Shown: piece after piece, positions 273 through 40,128 of the stretch
Layout of the letters: each line of letters starts with the position of its first letter
Position numbering within the stretch: position 1 is the stretch's first letter
Source: Escherichia phage N2
DNA length: 64,000 bases
Reading direction: 5' to 3' (one strand)
Sequence record: ON645936.1
Notes under the pieces: generated by a model
Databases searched by the model: none
What the model was told of the DNA's origin: nothing
Seen by the model: the letters and a program-made list of their open reading frames with translations, nothing else
Position numbers and translations under genes: made by a program

Positions 273-1838
273 ATGACTATCAAAACTAAAGCTGAACTTT
301 TGAACAAATGGAAGCCATTACTGGAAGGTGAAGGCCTGCCGGAAATCGCTAATAGCAAGCAGGCTATTATCGCTAAAATCTTCGAAAACCAGGAAAAAGA
401 TTTCGAAGTATCCCCTGAATATAAAGACGAGAAAATCGCTCAGGCATTTGGTTCTTTCTTGACCGAAGCTGAAATTGGTGGTGACCACGGTTATAATGCT
501 ACCAACATCGCTGCAGGTCAGACTTCTGGCGCAGTAACTCAGATTGGCCCAGCTGTTATGGGTATGGTACGTCGTGCCATTCCTAACCTGATTGCTTTCG
601 ATATTTGCGGTGTTCAGCCGATGAACAGCCCGACTGGCCAGGTATTCGCACTGCGTGCAGTATACGGTAAAGACCCGGTCGCTTCTGGTGCTAAAGAAGC
701 ATTCCACCCAATGTATGGTCCAGATGCAATGTTCTCTGGTCAGGGTGCTGCTAAGAAATTCACAGCTCTGGCTGCTAGCACACAAACCGTTGTAGGTGAT
801 ATCTATACTCACTTCTTCCAGGACACTGGTACTGTGTATCTGCAAGCTTCCGCTGTAGTAACAATCGATCCTAGTGCTAGTGATGCAGCTAAATTAGATG
901 CTGAAATTAAGAAACAAATGGAAGCTGGTGCACTGGTAGAAATCGCTGAAGGTATGGCTACTTCTATTGCTGAACTTCAGGAAGGTTTCAATGGTTCTAC
1001 CGATAACCCATGGAATGAAATGGGCTTCCGTATCGATAAACAAGTTATCGAAGCTAAATCTCGCCAGCTGAAAGCTGCTTACTCTATCGAATTAGCACAA
1101 GACCTCCGCGCTGTTCACGGTATGGATGCTGATGCTGAACTGTCTGGCATTCTGGCTACAGAAATTATGCTGGAAATCAACCGTGAAGTTGTTGATTGGA
1201 TTAACTACTCCGCTCAGGTTGGTAAATCTGGTATGACCCTGACTCCAGGTTCTAAAGCTGGTGTATTTGACTTCCAGGATCCGATTGATATTCGTGGTGC
1301 TCGCTGGGCGGGTGAATCCTTTAAAGCTCTGTTGTTCCAGATTGACAAAGAAGCAGTTGAAATTGCTCGTCAGACCGGTCGTGGTGAAGGTAACTTCATT
1401 ATCGCTTCCCGTAACGTAGTTAACGTTCTGGCTTCAGTTGATACCGGCATTTCTTATGCTGCACAAGGTCTGGCTACCGGCTTTAACACTGATACTACCA
1501 AGTCAGTATTTGCTGGTGTTCTGGGTGGTAAATACCGTGTATATATCGACCAGTATGCTAAACAGGATTATTTCACTGTAGGTTATAAAGGTCCGAACGA
1601 AATGGATGCTGGTATTTACTATGCTCCATATGTAGCTCTGACTCCGCTGCGTGGTTCCGATCCGAAGAACTTCCAACCAGTAATGGGATTCAAAACTCGT
1701 TACGGTATCGGTATCAACCCATTTGCAGAATCCGCTGCTCAGGCTCCGGCTTCTCGCATTCAAAGCGGTATGCCTTCTATTCTGAATAGCCTTGGTAAAA
1801 ACGCTTACTTCCGCCGTGTATATGTTAAAGGTATCTAA
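273..1838 (+). CDS. 23: Major capsid protein gp23
   Basis: 521-aa ORF; MTIKTKAELLNKWKPLLEGEG... matches T4 gp23 as I recall it; same length; followed by hairpin terminator. Confidence 0.96.
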   Translation: MTIKTKAELLNKWKPLLEGEGLPEIANSKQAIIAKIFENQEKDFEVSPEYKDEKIAQAFGSFLTEAEIGGDHGYNATNIAAGQTSGAVTQIGPAVMGMVRRAIPNLIAFDICGVQPMNSPTGQVFALRAVYGKDPVASGAKEAFHPMYGPDAMFSGQGAAKKFTALAASTQTVVGDIYTHFFQDTGTVYLQASAVVTIDPSASDAAKLDAEIKKQMEAGALVEIAEGMATSIAELQEGFNGSTDNPWNEMGFRIDKQVIEAKSRQLKAAYSIELAQDLRAVHGMDADAELSGILATEIMLEINREVVDWINYSAQVGKSGMTLTPGSKAGVFDFQDPIDIRGARWAGESFKALLFQIDKEAVEIARQTGRGEGNFIIASRNVVNVLASVDTGISYAAQGLATGFNTDTTKSVFAGVLGGKYRVYIDQYAKQDYFTVGYKGPNEMDAGIYYAPYVALTPLRGSDPKNFQPVMGFKTRYGIGINPFAESAAQAPASRIQSGMPSILNSLGKNAYFRRVYVKGI

Positions 1839-1852
1839 TCTTTGACGATTTA

Positions 1853-1880
1853 AGGGACCTTCGGGTCCCTTTAGTTGTTT
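1853..1880 (+). terminator. Intrinsic terminator after gene 23
   Basis: GGGACC-UUCG-GGUCCC hairpin followed by U-rich tract. Confidence 0.7.
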
Positions 1881-1886
1881 TTATGG

Positions 1887-1894
1887 TATAAATA
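1887..1894 (+). promoter_or_regulatory. Late promoter TATAAATA (gene 24)
   Basis: Exact TATAAATA 28 nt upstream of gp24 ATG. Confidence 0.7.
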
Positions 1895-1921
1895 AATCAT
1901 ATAAACCAAAAGGAAAGCGCA

Positions 1922-3205
1922 ATGGCTAAAATCAACGAACTTCTGCGCGAGTCAACCACAACGAATAGCAACTCAATCGGTCGCCCAAATCTCGTTGCTT
2001 TGACTCGCGCTACCACTAAATTAATATATTCCGACATTGTAGCAACACAAAGAACTAATCAACCTGTTGCTGCTTTTTATGGTATCAAATACCTTAACCC
2101 AGACAATGAATTTACATTTAAAACTGGTGCTACTTACGCTGGCGAAGCTGGGTACGTAGACCGAGAACAAATCACAGAATTAACAGAAGAGTCTAAATTA
2201 ACTCTCAATAAAGGCGATTTATTCAAATATAATAATATCGTTTATAAAGTATTAGAAGATACACCATTTGCTGATATTGAAGAAAGCGATTTAGAATTAG
2301 CTCTTCAGATTGCAATTGTTCTTTTAAAGGTTCGTCTATTTTCTGATGCAGCATCAACAAGCAAATTTGAAAGCTCTGATAGCGAAATTGCGGATGCTAG
2401 ATTCCAGATTAATAAATGGCAAACCGCAGTTAAATCTCGTAAACTTAAAACTGGCATTACAGTTGAATTAGCACAAGATTTAGAAGCAAATGGATTCGAT
2501 GCTCCTAATTTCTTGGAAGATTTGCTTGCAACTGAAATGGCGGATGAAATCAATAAAGATATTCTGCAATCTTTGATTACAGTATCAAAACGCTATAAAG
2601 TTACAGGAATTACTGATACTGGATTCATTGATTTGAGTTATGCATCTGCACCTGAAGCTGGTCGTTCATTATACCGAATGGTGTGTGAAATGGTTTCGCA
2701 TATCCAAAAAGAATCAACTTATACTGCAACGTTCTGTGTTGCTTCAGCTCGTGCCGCTGCGATTCTTGCTGCATCAGGTTGGTTAAAACATAAACCAGAA
2801 GATGATAAATATCTTTCACAAAATGCCTATGGGTTCTTAGCTAATGGTTTACCGCTTTATTGCGATACTAACAGCCCATTAGATTATGTAATCGTTGGCG
2901 TAGTAGAAAATATTGGTGAAAAAGAAATTGTCGGATCAATTTTCTATGCTCCGTATACAGAAGGTCTTGACTTAGATGACCCTGAACATGTAGGTGCATT
3001 TAAAGTTGTAGTTGATCCAGAAAGCTTACAACCATCTATCGGTTTATTGGTTAGATATGCTTTATCTGCAAATCCTTACACTGTAGCAAAAGATGAAAAA
3101 GAAGCAAGAATAATTGATGGTGGAGACATGGATAAAATGGCGGGTCGTTCAGATTTGTCTGTTTTATTAGGTGTTAAATTACCAAAAATTATCGTTGATG
3201 AATAA
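1922..3205 (+). CDS. 24: Head vertex protein gp24 (gp23 paralog)
   Basis: 427 aa, T4 gp24 length and position; TATAAATA late promoter 28 nt upstream; shared motifs with gp23 (ELAQDL, FYAPY). Confidence 0.92.
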   Translation: MAKINELLRESTTTNSNSIGRPNLVALTRATTKLIYSDIVATQRTNQPVAAFYGIKYLNPDNEFTFKTGATYAGEAGYVDREQITELTEESKLTLNKGDLFKYNNIVYKVLEDTPFADIEESDLELALQIAIVLLKVRLFSDAASTSKFESSDSEIADARFQINKWQTAVKSRKLKTGITVELAQDLEANGFDAPNFLEDLLATEMADEINKDILQSLITVSKRYKVTGITDTGFIDLSYASAPEAGRSLYRMVCEMVSHIQKESTYTATFCVASARAAAILAASGWLKHKPEDDKYLSQNAYGFLANGLPLYCDTNSPLDYVIVGVVENIGEKEIVGSIFYAPYTEGLDLDDPEHVGAFKVVVDPESLQPSIGLLVRYALSANPYTVAKDEKEARIIDGGDMDKMAGRSDLSVLLGVKLPKIIVDE

Positions 3206-3235: not shown

Positions 3236-4239
3236 TAACTTACCAATTCAATCCAAGCCGGACGAAGTACATCTTGTACCATTTTAACTAATTCCTTTTT
3301 AATCAAAGAAGGATTATCCGCTTGAGTTAGAGTAATACCTTCACGAGAAGTTTCTTCCAAAATATCTTGAACAGTTAGCCCCATCACCTTTCCAAAATCT
3401 TTTGGACCAATTTCGCCAATTTTAGAAATAACATTATTTACTCGGTTCAGTGTAACGTAGCAAGCTAAAATTCCCAGCAATTTATTATCAGCTTCTGACA
3501 ACTCAACTTTAGCTTTAATAGGCTTATCAGACTTTTTCTTTTCGCTAAATTTAGAGTTCTTGCATTTAATAGCGACACGATTGCCATTAGGCATCCAAGA
3601 AGGATAACAAGGTTTCAATACATATCCTTCAGCAGTAAATACTTCGCCTTTTGCTTCGGCATTCCAAACGCATTTATTTGCATCAACTAATCCAGCATGG
3701 TCTACTGTAAAATTATAATCCTGGACGACAGAATCTAAATCATTTGGCAATTTAATAAGTTCTTCAAATTTACCACGACCCAAAAGTGGAGCCATTTTAA
3801 ATTTGAATGTATTACAGAATGATTCCATCATATAATCATCGACATAAGTCACATCACCACTTTCTGTAGTAACAATAATGTCAAATACATAAAAATCTTT
3901 ATCACCATAATCGACATTCTTCTGAATGCCAGGTCCAGCGAATTCGCCGAAGACTTGATAAGATACAACTGCCGAAGTTTCCATAATATCTTGTACTGCT
4001 TTAATGGAATCAGCGTAATTCTTTAGAATAATTTCATACCCAAAGAAATCTTCAGCAGGAAGAATCGGTCCAGTACGTTTAGCACAAGTTGCTTTATCGC
4101 GTTCAATAATCAGTGAGAAATTTGTGCCATGAATCTTTTCACGAGCTACCCATTCGCCGCCAGTCAATCCTAAACTGTAAAGTTTTTCAATGAACTTAGA
4201 ATTGTAATGATTTTCAAGACTGCTATACTTTTTAAACAT
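3235..4239 (-). CDS. rnlB: RNA ligase 2 (Rnl2)
   Basis: 334 aa; [16 protein letters not shown]... and ligase motif KIHGTN (lysine nucleotidyltransferase motif I) as in T4 Rnl2. Confidence 0.92.
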
Positions 4240-4248
4240 AATTAATCC

Positions 4249-4527
4249 TCAAAATGTAATTTCTAACCAATCACCATCACGCTGATCACTATTGACTTTA
4301 AAGCTAAATCCTTCTTTTCTCAGCCAATCACCAATTTCTTCAGTAATCAATTTATCGCGAGCAGTGCAATAATAACTAAAATATGTTTTACCTTGCTCAG
4401 CTGCTTTATTAGCAAGTTCCGAAAAATCTTTAATAAAACACTCTAGTTTAAACTGTTTACTTTTAAGTGCTTTTTCGCGTAATTGATTAGCGAAAGATTC
4501 ATTTTCATAAAAATCATACTGTTCCAT
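4249..4527 (-). CDS. Hypothetical protein
   Basis: 92-aa ORF tightly packed downstream of rnlB on minus strand; no recognisable motif. Confidence 0.5.
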   Translation of the reverse strand: MEQYDFYENESFANQLREKALKSKQFKLECFIKDFSELANKAAEQGKTYFSYYCTARDKLITEEIGDWLRKEGFSFKVNSDQRDGDWLEITF

Positions 4528-32509: not shown

Positions 32510-33688
32510 TTAAAAATATTTTTTAAAACTCATCATAACTTTATCATCAACATCATTATCAATCTGTGCTACAAGGTAAGATGACAGTTCTACTTCTTGT
32601 GGTGCAGATTGAACATTATCAGAATTAAGGTATTCACGAATCCAAGGATATGGATGTTTAACCGGAGCATCGGTAATTGGACATGGAAGACCACACTGTT
32701 TCATACGAGATACAGTTAAGTAATCAATAAAGCTCCACATGCTATTTGTATTTAATCCAGGAACATCGCCATCTTTAAATAAATGAACTGCCCAATCTTT
32801 TTCTTGGCGGTTAACTTCCATGAAAATATCAACTGCTTCTTGTTCACACTCTTGAGCAATTTTAACCCATTCATCACCATCAGTACCGGATTGAAGTTGA
32901 CGAATAATATATTGAGTGCCTTTAAGGTGAAGCTGCTCATCACGTGCAATGAACTTCATAATCTTGGCATTACCTTCCATGATTTCCATGTTCTTATGGA
33001 AGTTAAAGGTACATGCAAAAGATACATAAAAACGAATAGCTTCTAAGGCATTAATAACGTGCAAACAGAGGTAAAGAGATTTCATTAGTGCTCGTTTAGC
33101 TTCGGCTTCTTGTTTAATAGCTCGATTTAAACGAAAAACAGCATCAGGAGATTCTTTAGCTAGTTCTGTAAATTCTTTAGCATTTTCCCATTCACGGGTT
33201 TTAGTCAGAACATCATCATAATAGCGACCGATAGATTCAGCACGTTTCATAATAGCTTTATCTAGTACAATCTCATCAAATACCTTCGATGGATCAGTAT
33301 AAAGATTTCGCATGATATGAGTATATGAACGACTGTGAATAGTTTCACTAAAAGTCCATGTAGCAACCCATGTATCAAGGCTTGGGTCTGAAATTAATGA
33401 CATAAGTACAGCAGACGGCGCACGACCTTGAATACTATCAAGTAATGATTGATACTTCAGATTATTAGTAAAAATATTTTGTTGATACTGAGGAAGCTTA
33501 TTAAACTGTGCAGCATCCATCATCAAGTTTACTTCTTCCGGACGCCAGAAAAACGAGAGCGAACGTTCAATAAGTTCTTCAAATACTCGATGCCGTTGAA
33601 TATCATAACGCGCAATACCAAGACCTGAACCAAAAAACATAGGTTCTTTTAAAACATCGACCTGTTTAGTATTAAAAACTGTACTCAT
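32510..33688 (-). CDS. nrdB: Ribonucleotide reductase beta subunit NrdB (uninterrupted)
   Basis: 392-aa contiguous ORF with class Ia R2 diiron ligand regions; no intron gap; hairpin terminator after stop. Confidence 0.94.
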   Translation of the reverse strand: MSTVFNTKQVDVLKEPMFFGSGLGIARYDIQRHRVFEELIERSLSFFWRPEEVNLMMDAAQFNKLPQYQQNIFTNNLKYQSLLDSIQGRAPSAVLMSLISDPSLDTWVATWTFSETIHSRSYTHIMRNLYTDPSKVFDEIVLDKAIMKRAESIGRYYDDVLTKTREWENAKEFTELAKESPDAVFRLNRAIKQEAEAKRALMKSLYLCLHVINALEAIRFYVSFACTFNFHKNMEIMEGNAKIMKFIARDEQLHLKGTQYIIRQLQSGTDGDEWVKIAQECEQEAVDIFMEVNRQEKDWAVHLFKDGDVPGLNTNSMWSFIDYLTVSRMKQCGLPCPITDAPVKHPYPWIREYLNSDNVQSAPQEVELSSYLVAQIDNDVDDKVMMSFKKYF

Positions 33689-35280
33689 TATTTTGTCCTG
33701 TAAACTAAATTTCCACAGTCCCAGATTCTTCTAAGACCATTTGCATAACAATTTTCTACTTCAGTTATTGTATCATCATAATTTTTAAGCTTGTTTTTAA
33801 GCTTATGTTTCATATAGCTTGAGCGGTGAAATACCTCTCCTTTATCGACGTACCAATAACATGGCTCAGAGATATGACTAAATTCCATGACAGAGTCATA
33901 AACATTTGATAATGTACTGCACCATCTTCGATTGCCATAAGATAGACAATTAATTCCTTTTAATAATTTTGAGGCTCCTCCTACAACACAAACCCCTAAT
34001 TTTGAACACATCCTTAAAAGTTCATCACCTGAGCTATATCTAGATTTACCGATAGAAATAATTTGAACTAACTCATTATTGTAATAAAGTCCTTTATACG
34101 TATGAGCTCCTGAGCAAAATCCTTGAAGATGATTCTTATTAATAAATTCTTTTGCCTCATCCTTATTAACAAACCGTGCTTTGCATTTTCGGGCTGGTAT
34201 TCTTTCTGATAATCCTAATTTATGCTTTATAATGGATTTCCAGATCTCTCTTTTTGTATCATCAATCCATTCATTTTCGAAGATGTGAAGTAATTGAATT
34301 CCTTGTGCTTCACACATCTCTGTCTTCATCAAATGATAAGTTTCTTTAATTTTATCTGTTTCCTTTGACCCGCTAGAATGCCAATAAATTCCATCGTATT
34401 CTATAGCCAATTTTTTCTCAGGAATGTAAATATCTAATTCATACGGAGGAATAATTTTTCTAGTTTCTACGCAATCAAATCCTAGATCTAAAATGAATTG
34501 CTCTATAGAACTTTGAGTATAATGAACGTCAATTAGTCCTTTGGATGAAAGAGCTCTATAAGCCGTCATCCGAGAACAATTTGCTAATTGTTGTAGTTCT
34601 TCTATAGAAATTTTGTAATTGATTTTATCTAGTATATCATGATTAATATGACCGTTATTTTTAATAGATTTTCCTATAGATGAATATAACGATGCCTTAT
34701 ATTCTTCAGTCCAATTTAATTTAGTCTTCTTAGATTTTTCGCGAGATTTTCTAGAATGCAGAATATCAACTGATTTACCGTTTTCTATAACTTTTCTCGC
34801 TTCTTTCACACTTTCTAATTGTGAATTATGCGTTACCCCATATCGTTCAATTAAAGTTTTTCTATTTTTATTTCTTGAAATTTTTTGATGAGTTGTTCCA
34901 TATTTTTCTAAAGAATTTTTGTGTTGAAGTTCAGACAAATATTTTTTATATTTTTCTTTTCCGCCAAAATTTGTATCACGGCTTTGAATTCTCTTATCCG
35001 CGAAAAATATCCCTGCGCAGGATTTACTACATGTTGCTGGAAATACACGTTTCTTTGCTGTTTTCAGAGAAATGAAATTTCCACAAACTGCACATTTTAG
35101 ATCGTTAATGTCAATGCCTTCCATAATTTGGAACACATTGAGCTTAAAATCTATTCCATCAGTTAGAAGAGCTTTATCTTCTTCTGTTAGTCTAGATTTA
35201 AGTTTTTCTTCTCCAAATGGAAGAAACTTTCCGTTTTTGTATATATTATCAAACATAGCGTTATTCTTAGTTAACCACAT
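33688..35280 (-). CDS. Multidomain nuclease-like protein at the mobE locus (Zn-finger, YGxTH repeats, HTH-like, Vsr/DUF559-like PD-(D/E)xK motif, unknown C-terminal domain)
   Basis: 530-aa ORF; CAVCGN...CSKSC; EKYGTTHQK/ERYGVTHNS repeats; PYELDIYIPEKKLAIEYDGIYWHS nuclease-like motif; TAATG-coupled to nrdB. Confidence 0.6.
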   Translation of the reverse strand: MWLTKNNAMFDNIYKNGKFLPFGEEKLKSRLTEEDKALLTDGIDFKLNVFQIMEGIDINDLKCAVCGNFISLKTAKKRVFPATCSKSCAGIFFADKRIQSRDTNFGGKEKYKKYLSELQHKNSLEKYGTTHQKISRNKNRKTLIERYGVTHNSQLESVKEARKVIENGKSVDILHSRKSREKSKKTKLNWTEEYKASLYSSIGKSIKNNGHINHDILDKINYKISIEELQQLANCSRMTAYRALSSKGLIDVHYTQSSIEQFILDLGFDCVETRKIIPPYELDIYIPEKKLAIEYDGIYWHSSGSKETDKIKETYHLMKTEMCEAQGIQLLHIFENEWIDDTKREIWKSIIKHKLGLSERIPARKCKARFVNKDEAKEFINKNHLQGFCSGAHTYKGLYYNNELVQIISIGKSRYSSGDELLRMCSKLGVCVVGGASKLLKGINCLSYGNRRWCSTLSNVYDSVMEFSHISEPCYWYVDKGEVFHRSSYMKHKLKNKLKNYDDTITEVENCYANGLRRIWDCGNLVYRTK

Positions 35281-35296
35281 CCTTGTGGTAATTATA

Positions 35297-37561
35297 TCAT
35301 AATTTACAGGATGAACAATCTTCAGCTTTTGGAGTTTCTATTTCGTAATCATCAGTACCGGAACCGTCGCGGGTATTATGATAATAGAAATTTTTTCCGC
35401 CAAAATACCAAAAATACAAAAGGTCATCAATCATTATTGACATTGGAACCTTTCCTTTTGGAAAAATCTGCGGGTCATAATATGTATTCGCTGAAGCTGA
35501 TTGACATACCCATTTCAACATAATAGCTACTTGCGTAAGATAAGGTTTATTACCTTTCTTAGCTAATTTCCACGTATAATCATAGAGGTCTATGTTATGC
35601 TCAATATTGGGCACGACTTGATTAAAGGAACCCTCTTTTGATTCTTTAACAGAGACTGGTCCACGTGGAGGCTCGATACCGTTTGTACTGTTAGAAACTT
35701 GGGAAGATGACTCACATGGCATAAGTGCTGATAATGTGCTATTACGGATGCCAAAGAGCTTAAGGTCTTCCCGCAGCGACGACCAGTCACAAACGTATTT
35801 TGGAGCTGCGATTTGGTCAATCTTTTTATTGTACCAGTCGATAGGTAATTCGCCTCGAGACCAACGAGTGTCTGAATAATATTCGCAAGGTCCTTTTTCT
35901 TTGGCGAGCTTAATGGATGCTTTAATGAGTCCATACTGTAATCTCTCAAATAGTTCATGTGTTAAATCGTTAGCATCTTCATAAGAAGCAAAGTTACTTG
36001 CCAGCCAAGCTGCATAGTTAGTAACACCTACACCGAGGTTACGACGCTTTTTAGCTTTTTCTGCTTCAGGAACTGGATATCCTTGGTAATCCAAAAGATT
36101 ATCAAGAGCACGAACTTGAACTTCTGCCAATTCATTAATTTTATCTTGGTCTTGCCAATCGAAGTTATCTAATACAAATGCGCTAAGGGTACACAATCCA
36201 ATTTCAGCATCAGGACTATTCACATCATTTGTTGGAATAGCAATTTCACAGCACAAGTTACTCTGACGAATAGGTGCCTTTTCACGAATAAACGGAGTAT
36301 AGTTATTCGTATTATCAATGAACTGCACATAAATCCTTGCTGTTCCTGAACGTTCAGTCATGAGCAATTCAAATAGTTCACGGGCTTTAATACGCTTTTT
36401 GCGAATATTAGGGTCTTTTTCTGCGGCTTCATACAATTCACGGAAACGGTCTTGGTCTTTAAAATAAGAATAATAAAGCTCGCCACCCATTTCGTGTGGA
36501 CTGAACAAAGTAATGTAGTCGTTCTTTCCAAAACGTTCCATCATCAAATCATTCAGTTGAACGCCATAATCCATATGACGGATACGGTTTTCTTCTACGC
36601 CTTTGTTATTTTTCAAAACGAGAAGATTTTCAACTTCCAAATGCCAAATAGGATAATAAGCAGTAGCAGCGCCGCCACGAATTCCGCCTTGTGAACATGA
36701 TTTAACAGCAGTCTGAAAATGTTTCCAAAAAGGAATAACGCCAGTATGACGCACTTCACCTGTGCCAATCTTAGAACCTTCGGCACGAATCATACCAACG
36801 TTAATACCAATTCCAGCGCGTTTGGAGATATATTCAACAATTGAAGCAGAAGCCTTATTGATAGACTTCAGCGAATCACCTGCTTCAATAACAACGCATG
36901 AACTAAACTGTCGAGTTGGAGTACGACAACCAGCCATAATAGGAGTTGGCAATGAAATCTGTCGAGTAGATACTGCTTCATAAAAACGGATAACGTGTTT
37001 TAATCTATCAACAGGTTCATCTTGATGCAATGCCATTCCAATAGTCATAAATGCAAACTGTGGAGTTTCATAAATTTGACCAGTGGTTTTATCTTTAACG
37101 AGATATTTTTCTTTTAATTGCATCGCCCCGGAATAAGTAAATTCCATATCCCGCTCGTGCTTAATTTTTGATTCTAAAAATGTAATTTCTTCTGCTGAAT
37201 ATTTTGACAATAATTCAGGGTCATATTTACCTTCATTTACACAGTAAGAAATATGGTCAATAAATGAACGGGGCTCATACTGTCCGTACACGTGTTTACG
37301 AAGAGCAAACATTAAACAGCGTGCAGCTACGTATTGATAATCAGGCTCTTCAACTGAAATAGAATTCGCAGCAGCCTTAATTACAATGGTTTGAATGTCA
37401 TCAGTGGTCATTCCATCACGGAGATATGATTTAATATTTTCATATAATTCATAAGGATCTACTGATGTTCCTTCAGCTGCCCAAGATAAAACTTTAATAA
37501 TTTTTTGTGGGTCAAAGCTCTGAGAAACACCACTACTTTTGATAACATTAATTAATTGCAT
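35297..37561 (-). CDS. nrdA: Ribonucleotide reductase alpha subunit NrdA
   Basis: Track ORF trimmed to MQLINVIKSSG... (755 aa) with GAGGA RBS; ATP-cone plus class I RNR catalytic core. Confidence 0.94.
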   Translation of the reverse strand: MQLINVIKSSGVSQSFDPQKIIKVLSWAAEGTSVDPYELYENIKSYLRDGMTTDDIQTIVIKAAANSISVEEPDYQYVAARCLMFALRKHVYGQYEPRSFIDHISYCVNEGKYDPELLSKYSAEEITFLESKIKHERDMEFTYSGAMQLKEKYLVKDKTTGQIYETPQFAFMTIGMALHQDEPVDRLKHVIRFYEAVSTRQISLPTPIMAGCRTPTRQFSSCVVIEAGDSLKSINKASASIVEYISKRAGIGINVGMIRAEGSKIGTGEVRHTGVIPFWKHFQTAVKSCSQGGIRGGAATAYYPIWHLEVENLLVLKNNKGVEENRIRHMDYGVQLNDLMMERFGKNDYITLFSPHEMGGELYYSYFKDQDRFRELYEAAEKDPNIRKKRIKARELFELLMTERSGTARIYVQFIDNTNNYTPFIREKAPIRQSNLCCEIAIPTNDVNSPDAEIGLCTLSAFVLDNFDWQDQDKINELAEVQVRALDNLLDYQGYPVPEAEKAKKRRNLGVGVTNYAAWLASNFASYEDANDLTHELFERLQYGLIKASIKLAKEKGPCEYYSDTRWSRGELPIDWYNKKIDQIAAPKYVCDWSSLREDLKLFGIRNSTLSALMPCESSSQVSNSTNGIEPPRGPVSVKESKEGSFNQVVPNIEHNIDLYDYTWKLAKKGNKPYLTQVAIMLKWVCQSASANTYYDPQIFPKGKVPMSIMIDDLLYFWYFGGKNFYYHNTRDGSGTDDYEIETPKAEDCSSCKL

Positions 37562-37586
37562 AAGTCCTCTGTAGTAAGTTACCCCA

Positions 37587-37594
37587 TATAAATA
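37587..37594 (+). promoter_or_regulatory. Late promoter TATAAATA driving the free-standing GIY-YIG endonuclease gene
   Basis: Exact TATAAATA 23 nt upstream of ATG, AGGAG RBS between; lies in the divergent gap next to nrdA start. Confidence 0.65.
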
Positions 37595-37616
37595 TAATTT
37601 TATATAGGAGAATATA

Positions 37617-38348
37617 ATGAAATCTGGAATATATGCTATTATAAACACTAAAACTAATAAGCACTATATAGGAAGTGCAATTAATTTTGAAGAACGATGG
37701 AAACGACACTTTAAAGATTTAGATAATGGAAATCATCATTCAATAAAGCTGCAGCGTTCTTATAATAAGCATGGTAAAGATGCTTTCGTATGTAAAATCA
37801 TAGAAGAACTTCCATACGAAAAATCTATCATTATTGAACGTGAAAATTATTGGATGCATGAATATGACTCAAAGGAAAATGGGTATAATATAGCAGACGC
37901 ATCGTTTGGGGATACCTTATCTCATCACCCAAGAAAGCAAGAAATCCTTAATAAAATTTCAAATGCAATTAAAAATAATAATTCAAAATTATCACCAGAA
38001 GAACTTAAGCAAAAACATGGTAGACCTAGAGACATCAAAGGTAAAACTATAGAAGAACACTATGGGTTAGATCGTGCTATAGAAATAAGCAAAAAGTTCC
38101 AAGAAAGAAACGCTGCACTTAATATGAAAGGCATCAATAATCCATATTACGGACAGACGCATACCAATGAAGTTAGAAAACGAATTTCTGACTCACAGAG
38201 AGGTAAAAAGAAACCCCATCTAAGAGTAAGTATAGATGGGGTAGAATATCCAACAATAGCAGAAGCTGTGCGTCAAACCGGAATAAGCAGAAAACTTATA
38301 TCTAAAAGATGCGCTCTAGATTGCTGGGAATCATATTTATACTGCTAA
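37617..38348 (+). CDS. Free-standing GIY-YIG homing endonuclease, I-TevI-like
   Basis: 243 aa; [10 protein letters not shown]...YIGSA...ERWKRHF...SIKLQRS...IIERENYW closely parallels I-TevI catalytic domain; NUMOD3-like [14 protein letters not shown]; C-terminal HTH-like tail. Confidence 0.85.
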
Positions 38349-38582
38349 AGTTCTACATTCGTCATATTGTTTTTCCGTTAAAACAGTAATATCATAATAG
38401 CAATCAGAAGAAGTTTTAACTGTGGAAATTTTATTATCAAAATACTCACGAGTCATTTTATGAGTATAATATTTTTTGCCATAAATGATAATAGGCTGTT
38501 CTGGTCCTGGAACTTCTAACTCGCTTGGATTAGGAAGTGTAAAAAGAACGATACCAGAAGTATCTTTAAATCGTAAAATCAT
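38337..38582 (-). CDS. Hypothetical protein between td and nrdA
   Basis: Track ORF 38337..38594 trimmed to MILRFKD... start with GAGGA RBS; 3' end overlaps the GIY-YIG gene convergently. Confidence 0.4.
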
Positions 38583-38605
38583 ATATCCTCGCAATTAAAT
38601 TAAAA

Positions 38606-38917
38606 TTATACCGCCATTTTTCCTTTCAAGACACCGTGGGACTGATAATCTTTGAGAACGAAATCTTTAGGCCTGAGTTTAAGAATGTATTCCAATTGTT
38701 CTTTAGTAGAAAGATAACGGAATTTATAAGGTAATCCGCCTATTACCAGTTCACAAAGCTCTTTAGATTCACGACGCAAAATTTCTTTACATTGTTCTAC
38801 GTGATTCATATAGATATGAGTATTACCACCAGAAAATATCAAATCTCCTGGAATAAGATTACACATCTTAGCTACAATATGAACTAACGCAGCATATGAT
38901 GCAATATTAAATGGAAG
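38606..38917 (-). CDS. td: Thymidylate synthase, exon 2
   Basis: LPFNIASYA... continues exon 1 ...DVFLG to give conserved TS motif DVFLGLPFNIASYA; 103 codons. Confidence 0.9.
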   Translation of the reverse strand, partial: LPFNIASYAALVHIVAKMCNLIPGDLIFSGGNTHIYMNHVEQCKEILRRESKELCELVIGGLPYKFRYLSTKEQLEYILKLRPKDFVLKDYQSHGVLKGKMAV

Positions 38918-39171
38918 CATTATGTTCAGATAAGGTCGTTAATCTTATCCCGGAATTATATCCAGCTGCATGTCACCATACAGATCAGACTATATCTCCA
39001 TCTTGATGAAGCAAGATGTCTATCGTTTCGAGTCACTTGACCCTACTCCCCAAAGGGATAGTCGTTAGGCATTTAGTTCAAAAGAACATTTAGCACGGGA
39101 TTGTCTACTAGAGAGGTTCCCCGTTTAGATAGATTACAAGTATAAGTCACCTTATACTCAGGCCTCAATTA
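38918..39171 (-). ncRNA. Group I self-splicing intron in td, ORF-less (254 nt)
   Basis: Begins UAAUUGAGGCCUGAGUAUAAGGUGACUUAUAC... and ends ...CUGAACAUAAUG like T4 td intron; splits TS between G183 and L184; short GUUC-UUUU-GAAC hairpin where T4 has I-TevI ORF. Confidence 0.85.
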
Positions 39172-39720
39172 ACCCAAGAACACGTCAACACTTCTTTGAT
39201 ACCACTGCAAATCCAAATAGCCATTACGCACATTAAACTGATAGAACATATGACAAGGCGGTAATGCCATTTGCTTGAGTTCAGCTGGATTCCATGCAGA
39301 AACAACTTGACGTCTATCATTTGGCAGTTTTTTAATACGATCAATAACTTCTACAATTTGGTCTACACCACCAAAATCACGCCACTGTTTTCCATAAATT
39401 GGACCAAGTTCACCACTATGATATCCTAAATCTTTTGCTTGATTTTCGTAATTTTCATCCCAGACTGTTTTGCCTTGAATTAATGAATCGTGTTGAATTA
39501 ATCGTAAATCATTGACATTTGTGCTTCCTGATAAAAACCAAAGTAGCTCAGCAATGCAAGCTTTCCAGGCGAGCTTCTTAGTTGTTACTGCAGGAAAACC
39601 TTTAGTTAAATCCCAGCGTAATTTAGTACCGAACAAAGCAATTGTTCCTGTGCCTGTTCGGTCATCAGTTTCATAGCCATTTTCAAAAATGTCTTTAATT
39701 AAATCTTGGTATTGTTTCAT
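39172..39720 (-). CDS. td: Thymidylate synthase, exon 1
   Basis: 183 codons MKQYQDLIKDIFENGY... with catalytic PPCH; in-frame UAA is first intron codon. Confidence 0.9.
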
Positions 39721-39765: not shown

Positions 39766-40128
39766 TCAATACGGTTTAGCATCAAATTTTCTTTCGATTT
39801 CAGGAGTGAAATATAATTCTTTACCACGTTTGGAAAAACGACCAATAATATGATAATTATTCTCATCAAACGTGATATTGCCAATATCCATAGCTTTCAA
39901 CCAAATATCGATATTTCTATCTAGTTTTATATCAAAATTCCAATACGGAGAACTATTACCGAAAATACTGCAAGCGGATTCAGTGCAATAACTGCTGCTA
40001 TAAATCTTGTCTTTGGGAACTACTAATTGATAGACGCCTTTAATAAACTGAGGACCCTGCCATTTTGGTTGTTTCGCGTCTTTTTCTAATAGAATAGGGT
40101 AATAATTAAAGTTCATATTTTCCGCCAC
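39766..40128 (-). CDS. Hypothetical protein inserted between frd and td
   Basis: 120-aa ORF; no recognisable motif; occupies junction where T4 frd and td overlap. Confidence 0.5.
   Translation of the reverse strand: MAENMNFNYYPILLEKDAKQPKWQGPQFIKGVYQLVVPKDKIYSSSYCTESACSIFGNSSPYWNFDIKLDRNIDIWLKAMDIGNITFDENNYHIIGRFSKRGKELYFTPEIERKFDAKPY

Follow-up and report, generated by a model that had tools for sequence, protein, structure and literature searches.

Escherichia phage N2 (sequence record ON645936.1) carries, within the stretch of 64,000 nucleotides (nt) analysed here (the window), a group I intron without an open reading frame (ORF) in the thymidylate synthase gene td and, nearby on the opposite strand, a free-standing gene for a GIY-YIG homing endonuclease that is a paralogue of I-TevI. 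The source region is the T4-like (Tequatrovirus) nucleotide-metabolism cluster, in which gene 32, frd, td, nrdA.2 and nrdA follow each other on the minus strand. The intron and the endonuclease are probably two independent selfish elements lying side by side, and their pairing looks coincidental because both are present in many phages, where they are independently distributed. Both elements have already been deposited in many genomes under generic annotations ('homing endonuclease', 'I-TevI'), so that the single locus is an ordinary juxtaposition and not a new kind of system. An earlier reading of the window, made from its letters alone (hereafter, the sequence-only reading), had considered the configuration unusual for td in T-even phages; besides the wide occurrence of the two elements, this view is contradicted by phage CJY920, which carries the same combination.

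I-TevI and the td intron constitute the textbook model of intron homing, and the I-TevI nuclease domain is used in engineered nucleases. The interest of the locus lies in a lineage of I-TevI paralogues that is found beside td in four phage genera and for which no functional study was found in the searched literature.

Co-occurrence of the intron and the endonuclease gene

The distribution and kinship of both elements were taken from a phage-genome collection. The td intron (38918-39171, minus strand) is exactly 254 nt long, whereas the endonuclease gene (37617-38348, plus strand; 243 residues) belongs to a 787-bp cassette (37570-38356, plus strand) that is present or absent as a unit and takes the place of nrdA.1. 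The gap between the end of the cassette at 38356 and the start of the intron at 38918 amounts to ~570 bp.

Most carriers of the endonuclease have an intronless td. This is the case for Ozark and ECO07P5 among the eight carrier records in Tequatrovirus and for every carrier read outside this genus, namely, three Jiaodaviruses (KP179, KpV477 and Nispero), phiR1-RT and Apostate, and annotations suggest an intronless td in the other Klebsiella carrier records as well. An ORF-less intron accompanies the gene in two of the eight Tequatrovirus carriers (the window and CJY920), and four phages, sutha, TB004, LH2 and RPN226, contain both the N2-type endonuclease and a complete I-TevI-containing td intron. 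The ORF-less introns were surveyed by comparing a 341-nt query across the window intron with phage genomes and counting the matches that covered the query in one piece. At least 36 phage records with an ORF-less td intron were found in this way, among which CJY920 alone contains the endonuclease, with ~0.4 records expected by chance; the co-inheritance counts (2/8 carriers; one of at least 36 records) are small numbers, and recombination erodes the signal.

These observations bear directly on collaborative homing, the partnership that the sequence-only reading had proposed. In this scenario, the carrier's own td would be protected by the intron, and repair would transfer both elements, the intron as well as the endonuclease gene, to the recipient. 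The layout is indeed that of the cyanophage psbA case, in which the free-standing endonuclease F-CphI collaborates with an ORF-less group I intron and is likewise encoded beside the intron-bearing gene (PMC2988022, PMC2790892); in addition, I-TevI has no closer known relative than the N2 enzyme, and a possible conversion tract on the td side of the cassette, discussed below, would fit cleavage in td. However, the psbA system needs cleavage at the insertion site as well as protection by the intron, whereas most N2-type carriers have an unprotected, unremarkable intronless td, which in ECO07P5 includes a near-canonical insertion-site sequence. Because the intron would have to protect the endonuclease's own genome and most carriers lack it, collaborative homing is not supported, and the single endonuclease-bearing record among the ORF-less introns argues in the same direction. 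Furthermore, no td nucleotide splits carriers from non-carriers, the enzyme occurs alongside I-TevI in four phages, and its DNA-binding half is only 28% identical to that of I-TevI, whereas the td-intron enzyme of a distant Aeromonas phage reaches 42%. We thus regard collaborative homing at this locus as very unlikely.

A looser connection is suggested by T4, where the co-conversion range of homing is ~2 kb and the free-standing endonuclease MobE drives trans homing of the defunct nrdB intron (PMC2790892). As in N2, a free-standing endonuclease there lies within co-conversion range of an immobile intron in the same nucleotide-metabolism cluster. Given that the td intron is ~570 bp away from the cassette, inside the ~2-kb range, it could be dragged along passively, and occasional co-conversion of this kind is possible by analogy. 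The two cases differ in that MobE belongs to the HNH class and a defunct ORF is still present in the nrdB intron, whereas the N2 enzyme is of the GIY-YIG class and the intron is ORF-less; moreover, inheritance of the nrdB intron has been shown experimentally to depend on MobE, whereas the N2 pair is known from sequence and its distribution displays no linkage. A stronger version of this alternative, namely, that the enzyme regularly cuts elsewhere nearby and that MobE-type co-conversion is the main route by which ORF-less td introns persist and spread, appears unlikely. Although the distance is well within the limit and the combination occurs twice (in the window and in CJY920), one record of at least 36 against ~0.4 expected is no real enrichment, the window intron is closer to that of the endonuclease-free 236Ecol005PP (98.2% identity) than to that of CJY920 (96.2%), and the td 3' flanks of the carriers are heterogeneous, with identity down to 78%.

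The endonuclease and its relation to I-TevI

The 243-residue protein matches the Pfam families GIY-YIG (PF01541; 7e-15) and NUMOD3 (2e-6), with a further match to I-TevI_DNA-bd (PF20987) that, at 21.4 bits, remains below the cut-off of 27, and its matches in the PDB include both the catalytic domain (1MK0; 1e-39) and the DNA-binding domain (1I3J; 3e-7) of I-TevI. Over 242 residues, it is 46% identical to I-TevI, and this similarity is unevenly distributed: the N-terminal 100 residues are 71% identical, as against 28% for the remainder. The GIY, YIG, R27, H31, H40, ERE and N-I-A motifs all align with those of I-TevI, whereas none of the four zinc-finger cysteines of I-TevI has a counterpart at the aligned positions. 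The sequence-only reading had recognized the parallel between the N-terminal ~100 residues and the I-TevI catalytic domain, the NUMOD3-like motif in the C-terminal part and the lack of zinc-finger cysteines, and the alignments bear out each of these observations. The ratio of non-synonymous to synonymous substitution rates (dN/dS) is 0.04-0.11 in both halves of the gene, indicative of purifying selection on each of them.

In its general organization, the protein closely follows I-TevI (PDB 1MK0/1LN0 for the nuclease, 1I3J for the DNA-binding part), with which it shares the ~71% identical GIY-YIG domain, a similar start of the linker, a NUMOD3-type helix, a C-terminal helix-turn-helix, nearly the same length (243 versus 245 residues) and an upstream late-promoter-like motif. 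By contrast, I-TevI is encoded in the td intron and contains a zinc finger, whereas the N2 gene is free-standing, on the opposite strand, outside td and devoid of the zinc finger. Relocation of I-TevI from the intron, as put forward in the sequence-only reading, is not supported, in view of the nucleotide identity of only ~70% (68-70% to I-TevI genes over the first 340 nt), the 28% identity of the C-terminal half and the coexistence of the two genes in four phages. Judging from these comparisons, the endonuclease is the closest free-standing relative of I-TevI, yet not I-TevI.

Across the wider set of proteins, the free-standing and intron-encoded classes have nuclease domains with 64-74% identity to each other. 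The C-terminal halves of the free-standing proteins, however, are 35-50% identical among themselves but only 27-29% identical to that of I-TevI, whereas the td-intron enzyme of Aeromonas phage Aes508 shows 42% C-terminal identity to I-TevI and retains the zinc-finger cysteines despite the large phylogenetic distance. The DNA-binding half thus follows genomic position (intron versus intergenic) rather than phage phylogeny, which argues that the two classes recognize different sequences; the 28% identity of this half likewise makes a target different from that of I-TevI likely. The td intron of Aes508 (positions 1312-3202 of locus L021) itself occupies a site that precedes the one used in T4 by 21 nt (7 codons), near the I-TevI cut position, and encodes an I-TevI-class endonuclease with zinc-finger cysteines.

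Close functional counterparts are the T4 Seg enzymes, such as SegF and SegG, known for 'intronless homing'. Like the N2 gene, they are free-standing GIY-YIG genes located between conserved genes, are sporadically distributed and replace small optional ORFs; in genomes without them, Seg enzymes should cleave a gene located close by, and by analogy the same would be expected of the N2 enzyme. The two differ in that, as judged by PHROG and Pfam, the N2 endonuclease is far closer to I-TevI than to any Seg family and is transcribed against its neighbours. From its sequence and context, we predict that the gene functions in the manner of free-standing GIY-YIG homing endonucleases of the Seg type. 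As a natural, selected close paralogue of I-TevI that combines the same nuclease domain with a different, zinc-finger-free DNA-binding half, it is of interest in its own right, given that its target and the rules of its linker could reveal the way in which GIY-YIG enzymes acquire new targets and the relationship of free-standing to intron-borne forms.

The cassette and its candidate target

The endonuclease gene is preceded by a putative T4 late-promoter-like motif, TATAAATA (37587-37594, plus strand), read from the sequence and also kept in phage KP179, and by AGGAG (37606-37610, plus strand), 6 nt 5' of the ATG; both the motif and the ribosome-binding signal had been pointed out before. The gene is divergent from the uninterrupted nrdA (35297-37561, minus strand) and convergent with nrdA.2 (38337-38582, minus strand; 81 residues), the 3' end of which shares 12 nt with the endonuclease gene, stop codon included. 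The latter matches Pfam DUF5496 (1e-52) and is the same gene as nrdA.2 of phage RB3. Accordingly, the plus-strand gene of 243 residues reported by the sequence-only reading is real, but its placement between td and nrdA has to be refined: nrdA.2 intervenes before td, and the gene occupies the nrdA/nrdA.2 gap.

The same arrangement, with nrdA leftward, the endonuclease rightward and td leftward, is common to four genera of Straboviridae. The endonuclease is found in eight of ~650 records of Tequatrovirus, in 18 of ~140 records of Jiaodavirus (Klebsiella phages; 90-93% nucleotide identity), in two records, both of Yersinia phage phiR1-RT, of Tegunavirus, where TG1 lacks it, and in six of 40 records of Lazarusvirus (Acinetobacter phages Apostate, Kimel, Octan and Meroveus). 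Within every genus, its occurrence is sporadic and most relatives are devoid of it. The sequence-only reading would have counted as its refutation that the same locus content is common in characterized phages, with a documented target elsewhere; the recurrence in sequenced phages goes part of the way, whereas a documented target elsewhere was not found. In the literature searched for a free-standing endonuclease between td and nrdA or a named seg gene at this position, only 'I-TevI-like' mentions at the level of genome announcements were encountered.

The cassette behaves as a mobile unit that is optional, sharp-edged and more uniform than its flanks. Similarity to the endonuclease-free Tequatroviruses ends at 37569 and restarts at 38357, and the match to Jiaodaviruses is 93% over 37567-38349, compared with 71-77% in the nrdA and td flanks. 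Among the eight Tequatrovirus carriers, the mean identity of the cassette is 99.0%, as opposed to 96.1% in the adjacent 800 nt of nrdA and 89.1% in the adjacent 560 nt comprising nrdA.2 and the td 3' end. In the cassette of the Jiaodavirus KP179 (positions 3250-4282 of locus L005), identity to the window is 96-100% over the first ~360 nt and 85-93% thereafter, a pattern that suggests recent recombination inside the endonuclease gene across genera; KP179 also has ~250 additional bases between nrdA and the cassette. On the other side, the 3' third of td (38606-38760, minus strand) represents an allele sharply different from those of Ozark (L001) and LH2 (L013), with identity down to 78% and a different C-terminal protein sequence, possibly because recombination tracts end here, close to the endonuclease.

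In the light of this distribution, the alternative that the endonuclease is no longer mobile, being inactive or else maintained for a different function (for instance, regulation through DNA binding), is highly improbable. I-TevI does double as a transcriptional autorepressor, which offers a precedent for such a role, but the catalytic motifs of the N2 enzyme are intact, both halves are under purifying selection, and the near-identical cassette is sporadically distributed over diverse backgrounds and genera. Operator-like similarity between the endonuclease promoter region and the replaced segments as candidate targets, sought by analogy with I-TevI autorepression, was no better than in shuffled sequences, which likewise speaks against a regulatory role.

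In the endonuclease-free genomes of each genus (RB3, KP185/JD18, TG1 and Konradin), the slot of the cassette is filled by nrdA.1, which encodes a DUF4326 protein. A search of the 64-kb window recovered no nrdA.1, the last 18 nt of which survive at 37552-37569, over the nrdA start. One block of nrdA.1 DNA (GGATGCACNTGYAARCC...TGYCATGGTGAT), encoding LGCTCKPxPCHGD, is conserved across all four genera. Carrier-specific single-nucleotide polymorphisms (SNPs), as possible marks of an immune target, were sought in Tequatroviruses over the first 1660 nt of nrdA, over nrdA.2 and over td exons 1 and 2, where no site separates carriers from non-carriers, and in Jiaodaviruses over td and the first 900 nt of nrdA, where none was found except at the cassette edge; a third-codon site at 37157 shows one weak association with carrier state. 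Because no nucleotide of these stretches sets carriers apart, the cleavage target is placed by elimination in the segment that carriers have lost, and the conserved 3' half of nrdA.1 is our best guess, although a tentative one, held with somewhat less than even confidence.

Several points weigh against this placement, beginning with the fact that elimination is its sole basis. T4 Seg enzymes can also cut the allele of their own genome, and if this applies here, the absence of distinguishing SNPs does not strictly exclude td and nrdA as targets. The sample of endonuclease-free Tequatroviruses is small, comprising five loci. Finally, the sole same-species pair, Nispero (carrier; L007) and JD18 (non-carrier; L009), is 98-100% identical in nrdA up to the cassette but only 64-90% identical in td over the ~800 nt beside it, which may represent a conversion tract on the td side; such a tract would be in keeping with cleavage of td or its vicinity.

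Assuming that nrdA.1 is the target, mobility of the cassette could be envisaged as follows. The endonuclease would be made late, from its own putative late promoter and from the strand not used for early and middle transcripts. In mixed infections, it would cut cassette-free genomes near the locus, presumably in the conserved 3' half of nrdA.1, which is absent from its own genome, and repair of the double-strand break would then substitute a copy of the 787-bp cassette for nrdA.1. The intron, ~570 bp off, might on occasion be carried along passively, in the manner of MobE-type trans homing, but the endonuclease would neither require the td intron nor be linked to it, and the latter would represent one of the many endonuclease-less versions of the T4-type intron that circulate in Tequatroviruses.

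The td intron, its ORF-less relatives and neighbouring genes

The td gene consists of exon 1 (39172-39720, minus strand; 183 codons, ending ...TTC TTG GGT) and exon 2 (38606-38917, minus strand; 103 codons and a stop), as defined by alignment with the intronless td of Ozark. Joined in frame, the exons yield an intact thymidylate synthase of 286 residues, whereas translation into the intron would meet an in-frame TAA directly after the GGT of exon 1. The intron scores 72.6 bits (E 1e-17) against Rfam RF00028, the gathering score of which is 50 and which is the sole Rfam family matched across the 64-kb window. The insertion site is identical to that in RB3, and the intron has the same ends: its first 84 nt are 100% identical to those of the RB3 (T4-type) intron, which is 1016 nt long and bears I-TevI, and nt 97-254 are 96% identical to nt 859-1016 of the latter. 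The only part without a match in RB3 consists of 12 nt at 39076-39087 (minus strand), which form the hairpin GUUC-UUUU-GAAC at the tip of P6, where T4-type introns hold the I-TevI ORF. The length, T4-like ends and P6 hairpin given by the sequence-only reading thus agree with both Rfam and the RB3 alignment.

The intron is structurally intact and has kept its core. The minimum-free-energy fold yields P2, P3, P4, P5, P6, P7.1, P7.2, P8, P9, P9.1 and P9.2; P7 forms a pseudoknot with P3 and is beyond single-sequence folding, and its strands GACUAU/AUAGUC are invariant in the td intron alignment. P1 is present, with exon CUUGGGU pairing with intron GCCUGAG and U.G at the 5' splice site, and so is the terminal G; in TB004 and RPN226, the exon/guide pairing survives altered bases on both sides (CUUAGGU with GCCUAGG). 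In an alignment of nine td introns with the ORF loops trimmed, which includes the distant Aes508, compensatory changes that alter both sides and retain pairing were found at 24 of the 69 consensus pairs. Even within Tequatroviruses, a P8 pair switches from A-U to U-A, the window intron having the U-A form, and P6 is built by three different complementary stems among the compared introns. The intron should therefore self-splice and leave td functional, as inferred from these features, and it is immobile on its own.

The last 27 nt of exon 1 (39172-39198, minus strand; CAA AGA AGT GTT GAC GTG TTC TTG GGT), the stretch that includes the I-TevI cleavage site and spacer, differ from RB3 (CAA CGA TCA GTA GAT GTT) at each synonymous opportunity, with the CNNNG motif (CAAAG) retained. 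The AGA AGT variant of this stretch is also found in phages without the free-standing endonuclease.

Comparable introns have reportedly been made in the Belfort laboratory, in the form of td mini-introns with the P6 loop deleted. The N2 intron resembles them in being a td intron of ~250-270 nt that has kept P1-P9 without the I-TevI ORF, but it is natural, and its P6 ends in a new 12-nt hairpin instead of a plain deletion scar. The intron of phage PD112 (262 nt), by contrast, matches the T4-type intron with its P6 loop precisely removed (UGUAGGACU|UUGGUUCUACA). More generally, the spans of the ORF-less records imply intron sizes from apparently the low 200s to ~445 nt, in addition to the 1016-nt form. 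The GUUC-UUUU-GAAC tip (GUUCUUUUGAAC) is shared by the 254-nt introns of the window, CJY920, 236Ecol005PP and HMD-9, whereas the 254-nt intron of GRNsp7 (L017) has CAGC-AGUA-GCUG (CAGCAGUAGCUG) at the same position. The two tips are unrelated to each other, and each is perfectly self-complementary within otherwise near-identical introns. When the 12-mers were sought in the full-length intron as possible deletion scars, matches were no better than chance, which indicates that the tips are not derived from the I-TevI-bearing loop. Outside P6, the ORF-less introns are near-identical to, and mosaic with, the ORF-containing ones, as illustrated by a P8/P9 variant common to the window intron and the full-length intron of RPN226. 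Endonuclease-less td introns are thus widespread and highly variable in length, in line with the cycle of gain, decay and loss that homing elements undergo.

The variants of the P6 tip, a second point of interest in the locus, bear on the assembly or decay of the classic mobile intron. One alternative is that the locus represents an evolutionary intermediate, in which the free-standing lineage and I-TevI would be the two ends of intron invasion or escape and the 254-nt intron would never have been invaded. Domain exchange is suggested by the combination of 64-74% identical nuclease domains with differing DNA-binding halves; the free-standing gene lies beside td in four genera; and the 12-nt tips are not remnants of the I-TevI loop, the look of a simple deletion being that of PD112. 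However, the 254-nt introns share 96-100% identity with those containing I-TevI once P6 is set aside, and the two kinds recombine, so the former are not an old separate lineage; in addition, introns deleted to different extents form a graded series of sizes, in accordance with recurrent ORF loss. The present data give no direction of transfer, and on the whole we consider the intermediate unlikely. It is quite unlikely, too, that the locus keeps both starting materials of the mobile td intron, that is, a lineage that was donor or recipient of the nuclease module next to an uninvaded intron; a related possibility is that the enzyme cuts in td and mobilizes the ORF-less intron. If both starting materials are indeed preserved, the origin of I-TevI through the Bonocora-Shub pathway, whereby an intron is invaded by a neighbouring free-standing endonuclease, would become reconstructable and testable in T-even phages. 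Coincidental proximity of two independent elements nevertheless remains the reading that we favour.

Another slot of the cluster is variable as well. Between frd and td, the window contains an ORF of 120 codons (39766-40128, minus strand) that belongs to PHROG 1928 and has no Pfam match; relatives have a similar ORF of ~104-120 codons, an unrelated one of 68 codons or nothing in this place. The slot between nrdA and nrdB, occupied by mobE in T4, holds an ORF for 530 residues (33688-35280, minus strand) that matches PHROG 3339 'homing endonuclease' (E 3e-151) and also PHROG 559 'HNH endonuclease', its sole Pfam match being weak and below threshold (PF18741, restriction-endonuclease-like). Finally, in RPN226 (positions 1313-2023 of locus L014) and 236Ecol005PP (positions 480-1190 of locus L015), nrdA is cut into two ORFs by an HNH endonuclease gene.

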